Assembly: GCA_035533875.1 (NCBI GenBank)
Contig: DATLSZ010000033.1
Span: forward strand, 1 to 58,519
Source: Candidatus Acidiferrales bacterium
GTDB lineage: Bacteria > Patescibacteriota > Microgenomatia > Levybacterales > UBA12049
Length of the DNA: 58,519 nucleotides
Direction of reading: 5' to 3'
The notes under the pieces were generated by a model. It did no database searches and was not told where the DNA came from. It worked only from the letters and a program-made list of their open reading frames with translations. This document shows positions 50,112 to 57,809 of the stretch, one piece after another; within the stretch, counting starts at the first letter, position 1, and each line of letters opens with the position of its first letter. The translations under genes and the position numbers were made by a program.

Positions 50112-52643
50112 TCAGCTGTCATTCTTCAATTTTCCAAGTAGGTCATGAATCATTGCTCTCATACCGGAATGAGCGCCTGAAGAGTCACTGCTTATTGTAC
50201 CTAACACATCAAAAAGCATAACTGTCGTTTGTGCTTTTAATTCTGGGGTTAATAGATCATACTGTTTGGCTATCGTATGAATTGCTGAAGAGATAAATGC
50301 GGTGCTTGTTGCTGTATTCGCAATCGAGATAAGTACTGGAATCCCTTCCGGATGCTGACCTAACTGTGCGTAATAATTATGCTGAAAATAGTGCGCCCAA
50401 GCAAAACTTCCTTTTCCTTCAAGCAGTGATACTAATTGTTTAATCTGACCGATCGTCGGTTCTTGCCCTTCCGGTGTTTTCATCGCCTGTGCCACAGCAA
50501 AGCCAAATGCGTCTCCCATTACATATTCTTCAATTATTCTCTCTGACAAAATCTCAGCTTTCTTCCTTGCTGCCTTAAAATCTTCATCTTGAAAATGGAA
50601 CATTGTGCTTCTTGTTGCAACGGCTCCCAGTGCACTTCTAATCGCCAATAATTCTTCTTGTGTCATCGTACTATGATGCATATATAAAATAAGTTCTGTT
50701 GTGTTGATACTCGATAAAACATCTTTAAACCTAAATAACGCGCCATCCGGTGTGCCTGAAATAACCTGTAAGAGCGCTGGCAACGCCTCTTTCGGATACA
50801 TACGCACTATCTCGTACAGAGTAAAATAAGAAATACTGGCATCAATCTGGTTTGCAAAATCTGCTACCAATTGCGCTTGTTCTTCCTGAAATGCCTGAGT
50901 AATCCCACTTGGCTCGATACCAATATATCTCCCCAACCATCTCGATTGCTCAAAAGGAACCACTTGCAACAGCGCTTCAGCTTTTCCTTCAGTTATCTCT
51001 TCTCCAACAACAGGTTCTCCATTCAACTTAGCGGTAAGCCAGTTCGTTTCCTGTCTTCTAAGATTTGCTGCTAGCCATTGATATACTCTCACTTGACCTA
51101 AATATTTCGCAAAAGCATCCTTATAGACTCCATAGACTGCTGCTTTATCCTCTGGTGACATAACAACAGCATCTACTTCTTGAAGATAATCCTTTATAGC
51201 CGTTAAATCTCCAAGAAAATATTTACCACCCAAATGCGTTATGGGATGACGGTAATATTCACTTTTCACTCCGTGACCAAATAAATAAGCGAGCGCTTCG
51301 TTTTTTGCACGATCAGTAAATTGCTCGAGCAATTCTCTTGCATGCTGCCGATGCCCTCGCAAATCCAGCTTCTGTCCTCTTTCGCCGGAAGCTGCTTGAG
51401 CTTGTATCTCACCTACTCTTTTTACTACTTCTTTCGCCGCAACTAAACTTTCTCTCCCTTGAAATGCATGCGAGAAGAGCATATGTCTCTCTTCATGAGC
51501 TCTTAAATCTCTTAACCAAAACGGATCAAACCCATTTGCTCCTCTATTAACAACACCTATACGATCATCTAACTCAGGCCTTGATTGCAGACTTATGACG
51601 CTACCACTTGACTCTTTGTTTAATGTTGCTTTGTAATCTCTATCACTGAGATAAAACATAAGACCGTAAGGGGTCGCTTCTCCATATACAGGCATGGCAA
51701 AACTTCTTTGGAAGATTGCTTGTGCAATACCATCTCTTACGTCAGGATTAAATTGATTTACATACGAAGTAACGATTGCCTGTCCTTCGATAAAATTAGA
51801 AATCCCTAATTTTACTCCTCTTCGTAGCTCTCTTGAATATCTTTGTTCTATCTCATCTTGTTCACTTGTTCCAAAAGCAACATGGATCAGTCTTTGATAC
51901 ATATCCTCAGGCGGCAACTGCCAAAACGCATCTTGACGTTTTGCAGCTATTTCAGCAGGTGATAAATCCCCGAATTCATGTTTGCCAACCGAGCGACTTG
52001 CTATAAATCTTGTTAATTTATATACAATATCTGCTGATGCATCTATTTCATCTCGTTTGACTCGCAACCTGTCGCCACGAGAAAGTTGCCGTATGTGCCT
52101 ATCGCGTTCACCAGCAGGCTCTGCAAGGATAACTGCCCTCGCAATAGCTGGAGTATATTCATGACGAGGAGAATATGCTGTAAACGCTTGTCTTGCGTGA
52201 GGAGAATATGGATTCGCGAGCATTGTTCTAAAAACTTGTTGGTCTATGTTTGCAAGTGCTTCTCCAGCCCTTATAAGCTTATCTGTTGAAGTACGCAACA
52301 GACCTGGATGACGAGCAAGAACTCTCTCTCTTGGTGTTAAACTGAGTGTTTGTCTGGGACGTTTTGCCAAAGCGCCATCACGTCTCCTCGAACCAACTGT
52401 ATCATCTCTTGTAATAAGCGTTTGGTCAGCACCCCTGGGTCGCAACTGTGGTGCTGTTGGGGTAAGTGAGCCACCAGGAGTACTCCTTACATTAACGCTT
52501 CTTCGTACAGGAGTTGTACGAAGAACAGGCACGGTCCGCCCTTCACTCGTAAATTCTCCTAAAATCTTTCTTCTTATTACAGAAGGTCGCTCACCTTGGG
52601 GTAATCCTCCCCCACTTGATTCGCCATGTTCTGAGGGTTTCAT
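50112..52643 (-). CDS. Large orphan protein (843 aa) with HExxH motif and helical C-terminus
   Basis: AHEERH...KNEALAY; ATG 52643 lies 9 nt after TGTTATAAT. Confidence 0.72.
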   Translation of the reverse strand: MKPSEHGESSGGGLPQGERPSVIRRKILGEFTSEGRTVPVLRTTPVRRSVNVRSTPGGSLTPTAPQLRPRGADQTLITRDDTVGSRRRDGALAKRPRQTLSLTPRERVLARHPGLLRTSTDKLIRAGEALANIDQQVFRTMLANPYSPHARQAFTAYSPRHEYTPAIARAVILAEPAGERDRHIRQLSRGDRLRVKRDEIDASADIVYKLTRFIASRSVGKHEFGDLSPAEIAAKRQDAFWQLPPEDMYQRLIHVAFGTSEQDEIEQRYSRELRRGVKLGISNFIEGQAIVTSYVNQFNPDVRDGIAQAIFQRSFAMPVYGEATPYGLMFYLSDRDYKATLNKESSGSVISLQSRPELDDRIGVVNRGANGFDPFWLRDLRAHEERHMLFSHAFQGRESLVAAKEVVKRVGEIQAQAASGERGQKLDLRGHRQHARELLEQFTDRAKNEALAYLFGHGVKSEYYRHPITHLGGKYFLGDLTAIKDYLQEVDAVVMSPEDKAAVYGVYKDAFAKYLGQVRVYQWLAANLRRQETNWLTAKLNGEPVVGEEITEGKAEALLQVVPFEQSRWLGRYIGIEPSGITQAFQEEQAQLVADFANQIDASISYFTLYEIVRMYPKEALPALLQVISGTPDGALFRFKDVLSSINTTELILYMHHSTMTQEELLAIRSALGAVATRSTMFHFQDEDFKAARKKAEILSERIIEEYVMGDAFGFAVAQAMKTPEGQEPTIGQIKQLVSLLEGKGSFAWAHYFQHNYYAQLGQHPEGIPVLISIANTATSTAFISSAIHTIAKQYDLLTPELKAQTTVMLFDVLGTISSDSSGAHSGMRAMIHDLLGKLKNDS

Positions 52644-52726
52644 TAAGAAAAGATTATAACAAAAAAAACGAAAATCAACTATAGGCCAATTCAAGCCTTA
52701 ATTCATTCCTTATGAAGAGAAAAAAA

Positions 52727-53030: not shown

Positions 53031-54863
53031 CTATCCCCACAATCCGTCTTTATTTTTTGCGGCTATGGCGTCCAGATCCAAGCGCTTTGTTTTGGACCTT
53101 GTCCTGGCATCGAAACGATAGCGGATCAATTTGGCCGGCACACCACCAACAATCGCATAGGGCTTTACATCTTTGGTCACGACAGCTCCTGCCGCAACCA
53201 TCGATCCACGTCCTATTGTTACCCCGCCGAGAACCGTCACATTGGCACCGATCCAGACATCATCCTCAATGGTAATTGGTGATTCGGAAACCGGTTGAAA
53301 GATCATCGGCTTTTTCCAATCGGCAAATCCATGATGCACTGTTGCAAAAAGACAATATGGCCCAATCATCACATAACTACCGATCTTCATCCCGTGCGGT
53401 GTAGAAAAGACCGTATTGTGATTGATAAAAATGTATTTACCAAACTGCATATCCCGGACATTTTCAAATTTGCACCCAGGCATAAGATAAATTTTTCTCT
53501 GGTAATTTTTTATATTAAACCCAATCAGTACCGACCGGAGCCGCGCAAAAAAATATTTTGACCCAACATAAGTATCAATCAATTTAGTAAGAACCACCCT
53601 TTTAGTAGAAGCTCCTCCGATTGCGATAATATACAGAATATTTTTCGCAAGATGCCCAATGAGCCACGCAAACCCGATACCTGTCAGCGCATAATTCCGC
53701 AGTACATAACTCAGACCCAAAATAATGATCGTACCGACGATGTTAATAGCAAACAATGCCTTCATCCGACGCTGGACGTTCATGATTGTCAGACCAAGAT
53801 AATTAATCGAAACAGGAATCCCCGCAAGAGCCAGTAACTGAAGGAATTGCACTCCTTCATCCGAATAACTTTTTCCGAAAAAGATGAGCACGTATTTTCC
53901 TATCAACGCAAGAACAAAAATCGAAGGAATAAGCAGCATAAAGATAAACCGCAACGACTTCCAAACGCTTTGCCAGAAATTTTTGATGTCATGGGATCCT
54001 TCGGCAAAGAGCGACTGTGAAGTCGCGTACGGAATCGTATAGAGCAGATTGGCGATCATAAATGAGACATAAAAATACGCAGAAGTTTGCGGATTGATTG
54101 TATTGGTAATCAGAACCGGCAGGAACAATCCTGGTGCAATACCCAAAAGTCCGACCAAAAAATTGATCATTGAAAAGCTCATCATCATCGAGAGTTTGTC
54201 ACGGGGAAAAATCGAAGAGAACCGAAAAGAAAATCTCGTCATCAAGATATACGCACTTACGGTCAGCGCACTCGCGATCGCTAGTGCCCACGCGCTGAAA
54301 ATGCCAACCGCGCCAAGTCCCACAAAAAATACCGGAAGCACTATCTTGCATACAGACACCAGAGTATTTTTCAAAAAAATGTATTTTCCTGAGCGTAGTG
54401 CGAGAAAAAGACCTTCGGTAAAAAAATCAGCAGAAATTGCTATCGTAAAGATGAGAAACAACCACCCGCTTGCTCCTTCGCGCAGAAATAGCAACCGGGG
54501 TGAAAAATATGGAAGGAATAATAAGAAGGTACCTGCACAGATTGCCGCTGCAGCACTAATAACAATCAAACTCCCCGAGATAACCTGATTTTTGTCTTTC
54601 ATGCGGGTGTATTTAGGTAGAAAGCGGATGATACTGTAATTGAGCCCCAATATACTCAAATTCATAATGAAGGTCGCAACGGAGATAATTGCTGTTGCCA
54701 AACCGACCTGCACATCATGATAGAGATGCGCAACAATCAGCCAAAAGAAAAAGCCGCTGCCGGTGACAAGTGCGGTACTTGCCATCATAAAGAAGGAATT
54801 TTGATAGAGTAAGTCACGTCTCAGTGACCAAATATGTGATGTAACAGATCGTAATTTTTGCAT
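53031..54863 (-). CDS. Wzx-like polysaccharide flippase fused to a hexapeptide-repeat O-acyltransferase
   Basis: About 12 TM segments ([25 protein letters not shown]), then [43 protein letters not shown]. Confidence 0.85.
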
Positions 54864-54995
54864 GTATTCCTCGGATGAGCAGAGGCAGAAGTGAGGAACT
54901 TTAGTATACCATATTTTTTTGTCGCTCAAATGGGAATTTCGGATTTTCGCTTGACAGCATCCTGCCTTTTTCTCTACTGTTAATATAGGGATTGT

Positions 54996-57647
54996 ATGGC
55001 ACAAAAACTGCTTTCTAAAAAATATGTTTTTATCGGGTTAGGATTGATCGCGCTATTCGGCATTGCCTTTATCAGTTACAATGGCGCACAAATCAGCAAG
55101 ACTCCTCCCACTGCTCCTTCATCAAGAACATTTCAACCAAAAACGGCTACAATGCCCAAACCGGTTAAAGACAAACCCGTCACCGGACAGATTATTGTAA
55201 AATTTAAGCCGCAATATACGTCAGCGCAAATCAATGATCACCTCAAGCAATATCACGCGAGTATCATCAAGACAATTGAAGGCATCAATCAGACCGTTGT
55301 GAAAGTTCCTGCAGGGCAAGAAGATACAATAATACAACAGTTGGCATCCGATCCGTATGTACAGACTTCTCAGCGGGATTATACCACTCATGCATTTTTT
55401 GTGCCCAATGATCCGCAATTTGGGACGCAATACGCATTTAACAATAATGGTCAATCAGTGCAGGGACAAAATGGATCGCCGCATGCAGACATTGGTATTG
55501 AATCTGCATGGGATGTTACCCGCGGCAACGGGGTAAAAGTCGCCATTCTTGATACCGGCATCAATCTCAATCATCCCGATCTTGCCGGCAAAGTAATCGT
55601 ACAAAAATCATTTATCTCATCAAGTGTTGAAGACGGCAATGGACATGGTACCCATGTCGCAGGTATCCTTGCAGCGGATACAAATAATGGTATCGGCGTT
55701 GCTGGCACCTGCCCCGGATGCAAATTGATTATCGGAAAAATCCTCGATGATACCGGTACCGGGACAACATCAGACGCGACCGCAGGCATCACATGGGCAG
55801 CGGATCAGGGAGCAAAAATAATCAATTTGAGCCTCGGAACAAATGATGTCCAAACCGCATCCCTTTACAATCAAGCAGTTGCGTATGCAATGCAGAAAGG
55901 AGCTGTTGTCGTTGCTGCCGCGGGAAACGATGGTTCAACGCAGTTCTCCTACCCCGCCGCTGCCAATGGTGTGGTATCAGTTGCCGGAACAGATAATAAC
56001 GACAAAAAAGCCAGCTGGTCTGATTTCGGCTCGTGGGTAAAGATTGCCGCTCCTGGGAAAAATATTCTTTCAACAGCCCCAACTCATACGTTTCAGCTTG
56101 AACCGTTTGGCTATAACACCTCAGTGCCCTATATGTATCTTTCAGGAACTTCAATGTCCGGACCGTATGTCGCAGGCGTAGCCGCACTTGTTTCAACAAC
56201 ACAATATGGAACAACTCCTCAAGCAATTATCAATCGCTTATACGCAACTGCAGATAAAATAGGCGGCACCGGCACATTCTGGGTAAATGGAAGGGTCGAC
56301 GCAGCAAAAGCAGTAGGGCCTGCTCCTACCGCGGTTCCAAACACCAGTACGCTTATCACACCCACCCTTTTTTGTGTCGGCGGAGCCGGCGTACCACCTT
56401 GTGCAACAATCCCACCAGGAGTATCAACAGTACCTCCTGCCTCAGGAGGTAGCGGTGGGACAAACCCTTCGGGCACAGCTGCTTCTCCCGCAGTCAGCGG
56501 TGGAGCCAATCCGTCAGCATCACCGTTTCCTGAAACGAATACAAGCCCCAGTCCCGCAGTAAGCGGCACTCCAAGTAATGGCAGTAATCTCGCTTGTACA
56601 AATATCCAAATCAAAAATGCATTTTATAATCTTGCCAATCAACAGACAAAATCCAAAACCAAAAGCGCAGAAAAGGTACATATAAAATGTCACTCCGGCA
56701 GCAAGAAAGGCAAAGGCGGAGGCGGCGACAATGACGATAATCCAAATCCCAATGGAGGATGGCTAAGTAAATTTATTGGCTTCCTGCTCCAGCTTCTGCA
56801 GCAGCTCCTGCAGTTGATCCAGCAGTGCACGGGGCAAACGCCAGGAGGTACCCCAGCACCATCAGTAAGTCCATCGGTGTCGAACTCACCGTCTGGGGTT
56901 TCTCCATCAGTGGCGGTACCGTCGGTCTCTCAAACCCCTTCTACAAACCCTTCAAATCCTGCACCGACGAGCTCAACGACTTCTTCTTCCTGTACGAATC
57001 CCACTCATGTCATCCCGATGAATCCATCCAATCCGCAGGACGGCATCACCATCGGTAATTTTTATCTCACGAATGATACCTGGAATGCATCAAAATATCA
57101 GGTCTCGCAAACGCTCTCTATCTGTAACTATAATAACTGGTATGTGACTGCTACGATGAACAATAACAGTGGTGACGGAGCGGTCAAAACATATCCGAAT
57201 GTCCACGAAGACTTTAACAATTCTCCCAAGATTAGTTCGTTCCACACAATAGCAAGTAGTTTTGCAGAAAGCGGTCCCCACGTCGGTATCTATGAATTCG
57301 CCTACGATATGTGGCTCAACGGCGTTGCGGGCGGCGGTTCAACAGAAGTCATGATATGGAATGATAACTTCGGACAAACCCCCAGTGGATCGCAACAGGC
57401 AACATTTACGGACAGCGGACAAACATATAAAGTATATAAATCAGGCAGTTATATTGCATTCGTTGATAACTCGAACGTTACTTCAGGAACGGTCAATCTT
57501 CTGAACTTTTTTAACTTTATCATCTCAAAGGGATGGATTCCTTCAACATCGACTATCGGGCAAATAGACTATGGCGCAGAACTGGTATCTACGAACAATA
57601 CCCCTGCTACATTCAAAGTCACCAACTTCTCCCTCACTGCTAACTAA
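54996..57647 (+). CDS. Membrane-anchored S8 subtilase - P/S/T linker - GH12-like glycoside hydrolase fusion
   Basis: Triad D186 (ILDTG), H217 (HGTHVAG), S386 (GTSMS); GH12 motifs ND.WN, VKTYPN, YD.W, EVMIW (E784) and GAE (E862). Confidence 0.85.
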
Positions 57648-57743: not shown

Positions 57744-57809
57744 TTTCAAACCCCGAATTGTTACACAAACGTATTGACGAAATGCATTTTGCCTCTATAA
57801 TATAAGTAC

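Follow-up and report, generated by a model that had tools for sequence, protein, structure and literature searches.

Thermitase-like proteases of family S8 are usually broad-specificity degradative enzymes, and subtilases normally lose their prodomain. Domains of glycoside hydrolase family 12 (GH12) occur in multi-domain enzymes of the GuxA type, where the partner modules are other glycanases and carbohydrate-binding modules (CBMs). Bacteria of the Candidate Phyla Radiation (CPR, Patescibacteria) have very small genomes, and the usual picture is of dependent epibionts that can do little to their surroundings. Here we analyze a gene at positions 54996-57647 of contig DATLSZ010000033.1, a stretch of 58,519 nucleotides (hereafter the window) from an ultra-small soil bacterium of the Patescibacteria (Levyibacteria), whose genome was assembled to 1.28 Mb in 39 contigs. 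Its product is an exported two-enzyme protein, in which a thermitase-like subtilase is joined to a GH12 domain via a lineage-specific tether module. The reading that we favor, and hold with fair confidence, is that this protein represents one combination in a mix-and-match set of tethered exported enzymes and not a dedicated protease-glycanase machine. The GH12 enzymes characterized so far to which it is related, as judged from the literature and from fold matches, all cut β-1,4-glucan backbones (xyloglucan, cellulose, mixed-linkage glucan) and not S-layer glycans (PMC7303141). In one of them, NopAA, the nucleophile is Glu117 and the acid/base is Glu216 (PMC7303141).

Two intact enzymes on one polypeptide

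The gene is the sole long frame in its region. An orthologous continuous ORF is present in about 10 independent assemblies, with conserved synteny at the related locus L001, so the fusion is not an assembly artefact. The pairing of S8 and GH12 is nevertheless rare and undescribed, as the original prediction had supposed. A search of 5.8 billion protein clusters with the GH12 part recovered about 10 S8-GH12 proteins of 830-910 residues, all from a single Levyibacteriota genus, and a literature search for such a fusion, or for comparable surface glycanases of CPR bacteria, returned nothing relevant. The architecture is thus far from common in databases.

The C-terminal domain is a member of GH12 with an intact catalytic apparatus. 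A phmmer search of PDB sequences with this domain gave only GH12 matches, including NopAA (6SDU, E-value 1.9e-11) and Cel12A-type enzymes (8e-8 to 5e-6), and a profile built from 25 relatives matches NopAA across its whole catalytic domain at 9.3e-44. The AlphaFold2 model of the domain has a predicted local distance difference test score (pLDDT) of 93.2 and a predicted TM-score (pTM) of 0.90. When this model was compared to the PDB with Foldseek, the best 48 matches were all GH12 structures, with TM-scores of 0.70-0.84 and E-values down to 9e-16, and the leading ones are xyloglucan-specific endoglucanases. The residues E784, E862, and D771, together with Trp and Met residues of the cleft, are invariant across the 25 relatives, and the two glutamates align with the EIMLW nucleophile motif and the GVE acid/base motif of NopAA. 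The earlier proposal of a GH12-like jelly-roll with both catalytic glutamates, which would have fallen with a domain that does not model as GH12, is therefore borne out by the model, the fold matches, and the residue conservation. On sequence and fold, the domain is probably an endo-β-1,4-glucanase or of xyloglucanase type, with a β-1,4-glucan backbone as its probable substrate. A disulfide between C666 and C710 is probable. Base composition gives no signal of recent horizontal transfer of the GH12 part, as GC content at third codon positions ranges from 0.36 to 0.49 across the parts of the gene and from 0.36 to 0.46 in the neighboring genes.

In the N-terminal half, residues 10-28 form the only segment of the protein with transmembrane-grade hydrophobicity (mean Kyte-Doolittle value of 2.16 over 19 residues); the full-length model has a helix at residues 8-32, and the segment is kept in all orthologues. 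It is followed by a prodomain of the fervidolysin type (PF22148, 37.8 bits against a cut-off of 21), modeled as a β-α-β fold with pLDDT values of 79-85. The protease domain matches PF00082 (Peptidase_S8) over residues 177-422 with 175.8 bits against a cut-off of 21.8, and its closest solved relative is thermitase (1THM, E-value 3.9e-69), in an alignment that spans the whole catalytic domain. The triad residues D186, H217, and S386 and the oxyanion residue N311 are invariant in 10 orthologues. The N-terminal transmembrane segment, the propeptide-like segment, and the S8 domain with its intact triad were thus all correctly recognized from the DNA alone, and the residue numbers given for D186, H217, S386, E784 (in EVMIW), and E862 (in GAE) are exact.

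Within the S8 domain, a Cys-Pro-x-Cys motif, CPGC in the window protein (residues 239-242, positions 55710-55721), takes the place of the APKA of thermitase. It is invariant in all chassis orthologues (defined below) and in L003, L005, L006, and L007, and could correspond to a structural or redox-sensitive disulfide near the substrate-binding strand.

A portable tether module between the two enzymes

The two enzymes are separated by a region that had been described as Pro/Ser/Thr/Gly linkers interrupted by a basic-acidic patch and an amphipathic helix. All these elements are present, and the stretches measured for the two linkers (residues 446-533 and 616-665) consist of 74% and 80% Pro, Ser, Thr, Gly, and Ala. 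The view of the patch and helix as a mere interruption of the linker does not hold, since they form the most distinctive conserved element of the protein, a portable module found on at least 8 exported proteins of this genome. A Pfam scan of the linker region alone gave no matches.

The order of the elements is identical in all 10 fusions: a Cys-loop of the form ITPTLFC-x-GG-x(3)-PPC, a Pro/Ser/Thr linker, a Cys followed by a basic or His-rich patch, Gly residues and an amphipathic helix, and a second Pro/Ser/Thr linker, with a second Cys after the helix in 7 of the 10. P456, C460, G462, and C534 are invariant across 14 proteins, comprising chassis proteins and short forms without the protease. 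The short forms have a canonical signal peptide with the module immediately behind it; in the other module proteins of this genome and in short GH12 proteins, too, the Cys-loop motif comes after the signal peptide. In nearly all copies, the patch before the helix has a net basic or His-rich composition. The helix of the window protein has a hydrophobic moment of 0.53, a value reached by 0.1% of shuffled sequences, and the same holds in 13 homologues; over the 14 copies, all amphipathic, the moment ranges from 0.48 to 0.89, and no more than 0.4% of shuffled sequences attain it. Mean Kyte-Doolittle values of 1.0-1.6 across the copies are under transmembrane grade. With polar residues every 3-4 positions and basic residues on the wrong side, a true transmembrane segment was rejected. 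Anchoring as a lipoprotein or by sortase was rejected as well: there is no lipobox beside the signal peptide, and no LPxT[GAS] motif was found anywhere in the protein, whose C-terminus falls inside the GH12 fold.

The protein P0002, from another sample, is near-identical to the window protein, with a GH12 domain that is 100% identical. It differs in the basic patch within residues 549-560 (P0002 has QQKKTKTKNTEK there) and in the second linker, by one additional Ser and a Val/Ile change, and nowhere else, so that the microdiversity of this pair is concentrated in the module and linker.

In this genome, the module occurs on 8 exported proteins, including the window protein (Table 1). The C-terminal domains of two of the others (C38:6740-8671 and C16:26689-28239), of about 320-400 residues with GNEP or WHEPEN motifs, have no Pfam match and, on these motifs, may be unclassified hydrolases resembling clan GH-A. 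Within the genus, the module is present in 12 of 13 species with 3-8 copies each, often clustered. Beyond it, the module was found in 25 of 194 genomes of the family (9 of 89 genera), and in a sample of the phylum (401 genomes, 320 genera) only in this genome and as one marginal match. Among 1.84 billion representative proteins worldwide, it occurs in 71 clusters at E-values up to 1e-3. Their heads, as we call the domains that accompany the module, include ricin lectins (6), GH16 (5), S8 (4), GH12 (4), two each of GH114, peptidase A4, and GH5, and one each of GH10, phytase, Spherulin4, phosphoesterase, purple acid phosphatase, and BSP peptidase, which is a general repertoire of hydrolases and lectins.

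The locus L110 (G148:C2:35000-46000) has four adjacent genes for module-bearing exoproteins between ribosomal-protein genes, apparently rplJ and rplA from translations read by eye. Their heads would be, by motif, GH10-like, GH16-like, β-helix, and DPBB-like. No anchoring machinery was found within this cluster, which holds only further module proteins between the ribosomal-protein genes. The module-bearing genomes of the family tend to be larger (about 1.2-2.2 Mb) than most genomes without the module (0.5-1.2 Mb), a hint that a less reduced lifestyle accompanies the set of exo-enzymes.

Heads are exchanged on a conserved chassis

Protease and module together make up a single-copy chassis at a conserved locus of purine genes, to which an exchangeable C-terminal head is attached. 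This head is GH12, a second GH12 type, GH16, GH5, tyrosinase, or absent (Table 1). The GH16 variant sits after guaB, an aminotransferase gene, and purA, as the window gene does, and the variant with the second GH12 type adjoins guaA. The replacement of the head, repeatedly and in the same neighborhood, argues against an obligatory coupling of protease and GH12.

The phylogenies of the two domains lead to the same view. In the protease tree, the nearest relative of the window protein is the GH16-bearing P0033, with 79% identity, and P0033 and the tail-only P0034 are nested in a clade of GH12-bearing proteins with support of 96/98. In the GH12 tree, the domains from fusions, from short forms, and from other phyla are interleaved. 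The fused P0004 pairs with the short L087 (100/100), and the fused P0030 pairs with the short L082 (97/87), the latter pair standing beside an actinobacterial group (96/97). At least four changes of the S8-fused label are forced by the starred branches of this tree. The two trees are also in direct conflict for P0015, which groups with P0022 by its protease and with P0020 by its GH12 domain. This incongruence implies repeated exchange of the heads. A protease that ends in a helix tail, as L007 still does, may represent the older form of the module.

Genomic setting

Upstream of the fusion gene at L001 and in the window lies a divergent gene for a Wzx-like flippase/acetyltransferase (73% identity between the two loci), and downstream lies guaA (75%). 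The fusion protein itself is only about 60% identical between the window and L001. The guaA gene has a promoter of its own (TTGACG-16-TATAAT at 57774-57801), and the fusion gene is therefore probably monocistronic. A scan upstream of the fusion gene gave only a candidate TTGACA at 54951, a weak -10 element, and an AGGGA Shine-Dalgarno sequence.

The product of the divergent gene (53031-55004, minus strand) combines the Wzx-like flippase (PF01943) with a hexapeptide acetyltransferase (PF00132). The TTG start listed for this gene overlaps the start of the fusion gene; the true start is probably the Met at residue 48, which is where the L001 orthologue begins in the alignment. An ORF of 860 residues (50112-52694, minus strand) with no Pfam match also lies between purA and the fusion gene; the locus of the GH16 variant lacks it but is otherwise syntenic.

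Related records are labeled Candidatus Levyibacteriota or Patescibacteria. Several of the metagenome-assembled genome (MAG) records behind L001, L004, L007, and L002 are labeled "uncultured Gammaproteobacteria" or "Candidatus Sulfotelmatobacter", yet belong to the same genus as MAGs labeled Levyibacteriota, and these labels are probably wrong.

Table 1. Features of the fusion gene in the window, chassis variants and protease-less relatives, and further module carriers of this genome
Feature	Residues	Coordinates	Strand	Remarks
Whole gene, S8 protease + tether module + GH12 fusion		54996..57647	+	883 aa; stop TAA 57645-57647
N-terminal hydrophobic segment	10-28	55023..55079	+	Signal anchor or long signal peptide
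Fervidolysin-type N-terminal prodomain	52-129	55149..55382	+	PF22148, aa 52-123
Thermitase-like S8 catalytic domain	135-441	55398..56318	+	PF00082
D186 of S8 triad	186	55551-55553	+	DTG motif
H217 of S8 triad	217	55644-55646	+	HGTH motif
N311, oxyanion Asn of S8 domain	311	55926-55928	+	
S386 of S8 triad	386	56151-56153	+	GTSM motif
Cys-loop element of tether module	454-474	56355..56417	+	
Pro/Ser/Thr/Gly linker 1	475-533	56418..56594	+	Predicted disordered, pLDDT <30
Tether module core	534-611	56595..56828	+	Module hidden Markov model/profile match, 65-75 bits; C534, short helix 539-553, basic patch 551-577 (with C565), acidic DNDDN patch 578-586, C611
Amphipathic Leu/Gln helix	589-610	56760-56825	+	Isolated helix 589-611 in the full-length model
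Pro/Ser/Thr linker 2	612-665	56829..56990	+	Predicted disordered
GH12 catalytic domain	666-883	56991..57644	+	Model, fold search, invariant residues
D771, supporting Asp of GH12	771	57306-57308	+	
E784, nucleophile of GH12	784	57345-57347	+	EVMIW motif
E862, acid/base of GH12	862	57579-57581	+	GAE motif
Chassis L003				Head: tyrosinase
Chassis L006				Head: GH5
Chassis L007				No head; protein ends right after the helix
Chassis P0033				Head: GH16
Chassis P0034				Pro/Ser/Thr tail only
Chassis L090				Head: second, divergent GH12 type
L082, L085, L087 (sister species)				Protease-less; signal peptide + module + GH12
Module carrier, this genome		C38:59853		Signal peptide + module + GH5
Module carrier, this genome		C38:6740		Signal peptide + module + unassigned GNEP-motif domain
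Module carrier, this genome		C16:26689		Signal peptide + module + unassigned WHEPEN-motif domain
Module carrier, this genome		C15:6017		Signal peptide + module + ricin-B lectins + FN3
Module carrier, this genome		C15:4301		Signal peptide + module + FN3 + Cys-rich tail
Module carrier, this genome		C31:8087		PQQ propeller + module + Spherulin4
Module carrier, this genome		C38:51296		Phosphoesterase + module at C-terminus

Proposed mode of action and alternative readings

That the protein is exported and bears two catalytically intact heads, joined by long and flexible linkers, is supported by the sequence features described above. Taken together, the domain identities, catalytic residues, fold, recurrence of the module, swapping of heads, and synteny form the basis for regarding the protein as one member of a mix-and-match set, most likely a surface-retained scavenging enzyme. 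In such a scheme, the protein would be exported via its N-terminal hydrophobic segment, and the prodomain would assist the folding of the protease before its autocatalytic removal, which would take the N-terminal anchor along. The module would then hold the mature two-headed protein near the cell, either because the basic patch and the amphipathic helix rest on membrane or wall, or because the helix bundles with other module copies. Since the short forms have a signal peptide and the hydrophobic segment of the chassis lies upstream of a removable prodomain, nothing but the module is a candidate for retaining the mature protein. In line with such a role, L007 ends right after the helix, and in five genomes of other genera a module match lies closely downstream of the S8 domain, probably in one and the same protein. 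Basic residues ahead of an amphipathic helix that begins with an aromatic residue are a typical arrangement for binding at the membrane interface. Each head would act on a flexible tether of 50-90 residues, a length that could span the cell wall. Protease and glucanase would cut proteins and β-glucans from the environment or from neighboring cells, and the products would be freed beside a cell of very limited biosynthesis.

Several points weigh against this reading. A Pfam scan of the GH12 domain of the window protein alone gave no match to PF01670, even at an E-value of 10, and its membership is therefore established through the PDB sequence search, the family profile, and the fold; orthologues with 62-65% identity carry PF01670, and L082 of the same genus reaches 49.7 bits against a cut-off of 27. 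With 22-25% identity to characterized GH12 enzymes, a substrate within the family cannot be assigned. The N-terminal segment could be either a cleaved signal peptide or an anchor. For the prodomain, autocatalytic removal is presumed from general knowledge of subtilases and from the PNDP motif at residue 137, which we take to resemble the mature N-terminus of thermitase. The full-length AlphaFold2 model, obtained from an alignment of 14 sequences that is too shallow, is poor (pLDDT 57) and resembles beads on a string: the helix is isolated between disordered linkers without docking onto either enzyme, and the model is uninformative on what the helix binds. Finally, the copies of the helix are more alike within than between genomes, a pattern that plain lipid anchoring explains no better than bundling or a shared receptor would.

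This last point leads to the alternative that fares best, although we regard it as doubtful. Here, the helix would self-associate and zip several module-bearing enzymes, among them the protease, glucanases, lectins, and phosphatases, into disulfide-locked bundles, as a scaffold-free functional analogue of the dockerin/cohesin pair. The helix blocks are 54.8% identical within genomes and 36.2% between them, a difference that none of 2000 permutations reached, and the polar face is genome-specific, of a Gln type or a charged type, irrespective of the head. Three proteins of genome G148 with unrelated heads even carry identical module sequences. The heptad pattern LLQLLQQ in the helix and the flanking cysteines in most copies also argue for bundling. 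However, the basic patch before the helix would be unneeded in a bundle and is typical of binding to anionic surfaces, and the helix, with its broad hydrophobic face and an aromatic residue at its start, is similar to those that bind at membrane interfaces. The similarity within genomes could have arisen by neutral gene conversion, recent duplication, or shared ancestry, and genomes of the Gln type and of the charged type may be no more than two subclades. On sequence, anchoring and bundling both remain candidate roles of the helix.

It is improbable that the two enzymes were fused to act jointly on one glycoprotein of a host S-layer or a biofilm matrix, for attachment or feeding, as the original prediction had proposed. 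Both heads are indeed intact on one polypeptide, CPR bacteria are often epibionts, and the gene evolves faster than its neighbors, with the identities to L001 given above, as proteins of surface interactions often do. Nevertheless, heads are freely exchanged on the same chassis, GH12 occurs without the protease in sister species, and the protease and GH12 trees are incongruent. Known GH12 substrates are β-1,4-glucans and not S-layer glycans, and the heads of the module family, with phytase and acid phosphatase among them, are a general set of hydrolases and lectins. An attack on S-layers or biofilm matrix by a purpose-built pair is thus unsupported.

We consider it equally unlikely that the S8 chassis serves the module system as its dedicated processing protease, with a sortase-like logic, co-localized with its substrates via the module and with GH12 as a passenger. 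The distribution of the chassis speaks for such a maturase. All 12 module-bearing genomes of the genus have a single-copy orthologue (identity of 58% or more), and the one genome without the module lacks it. Across the family, the chassis was found in 22 of 25 module-positive and 5 of 169 module-negative genomes (two-by-two counts of 22, 3, 5, and 164; Fisher p = 3e-21, uncorrected for phylogeny). The five genomes of other genera mentioned above have a module match 214-280 nt downstream of the S8 domain and on the same strand, thus probably as part of the same protein. However, the association takes no account of shared ancestry, and both traits mark a single subclade. Thermitase-like S8 enzymes, as mentioned, are usually degradative, a conserved cleavage motif was not identified, and the genome G156 has five S8 paralogues.

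Least probable is a catalytically dead GH12 fold that only binds carbohydrate and targets the protease: the window sequence scores below the Pfam GH12 model and jelly-roll folds are common as binding modules, but the nucleophile, acid/base, supporting Asp, and cleft Trp and Met residues are invariant in 25 relatives, and many relatives have GH12 as their sole catalytic domain.

Implications

In this lineage, exported hydrolases that share a tether, and whose heads move between genes and species, take up a noticeable share of a 1.3-1.6 Mb genome. Should the tether retain or bundle the enzymes, an ultra-small cell could profit from extracellular digestion without losing the products, by a simple alternative to dockerin/cohesin or sortase display. 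More tentatively, the Cys-loop, basic patch, and helix could make up a system for surface display or docking, so far undescribed, in a clade of Levyibacteriota. In such a system, genome-typed helices of 22 residues would hold a set of exo-enzymes (glycanases, proteases, phosphatases, and lectins among them) at the surface or in bundles, the S8 chassis would be the founding and possibly a processing component, and the heads would be shuffled by recombination in the linkers, the S8-GH12 protein being the first recognized two-headed member. The pairing of protease and GH12 extends the known architectures of both families and provides a compact natural two-enzyme scaffold, and the GH12 subfamily to which the domain belongs (C-terminal, starting with CTNP, spread across soil phyla) is without a characterized member.

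Comparison with known systems

Among characterized GH12 enzymes, NopAA/GunA (6SDU), the Aspergillus XEG (3VL8), Bacillus licheniformis XG12 (2JEM), and Rhodothermus Cel12A (1H0B) share the same β-jelly-roll of clan GH-C with the window domain, with TM-scores of 0.80-0.84, and have in common with it the E-[IV]-M-I-W nucleophile motif and the G-x-E acid/base motif. Compared to these enzymes, to which it is only 22-25% identical, the window subfamily starts with a conserved C-T-N-P and a second Cys, and is nearly always C-terminal behind linkers rich in Pro and Thr. In the secreted GuxA of Acidothermus cellulolyticus, whose GH12 domain (7MKS) is among the fold matches, Pro/Thr-rich linkers likewise connect GH12 to other modules. 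In contrast to GuxA, the partner in the window protein is a protease, and the connector is the module of Cys-loop, basic patch, and amphipathic helix and not a CBM.

The protease half compares to thermitase (1THM) and fervidolysin (1R6V) of family S8A by its D-H-S triad, its oxyanion Asn, the end-to-end alignment with thermitase, and the fervidolysin-type N-terminal prodomain. It differs from them by an insertion of 14 residues after PNDP and the conserved CPGC, and the window protein adds an N-terminal membrane segment and a C-terminal extension of 440 residues with the module and the second enzyme. A similar layout of subtilase, linker, and single hydrophobic helix, as in the head-less L007, is found in the mycosins, the subtilases of type VII secretion systems with a C-terminal membrane anchor. 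The mycosin model TIGR03921 is the best NCBIfam match of the S8 domain, but its 208.4 bits are under the equivalog cut-off of 278.75. The helix of the window protein is amphipathic (mean Kyte-Doolittle value of 1.36) and not of transmembrane grade, with the basic residues before and not after it, and membership of the mycosins was rejected.

The module itself compares to the dockerins (PF00404), which are likewise short, portable, non-catalytic, and linker-flanked, and occur on many unrelated exo-enzymes of one organism. Neither the whole protein nor the linker region matched PF00404 in Pfam, and a docking module of the dockerin/cellulosome type was rejected. Compared to dockerins, the tether module has no sequence relation, a single helix instead of Ca-binding repeats and loops, and no known cohesin-like partner, and it may sit at the N-terminus, internally, or at the C-terminus of the protein that carries it.

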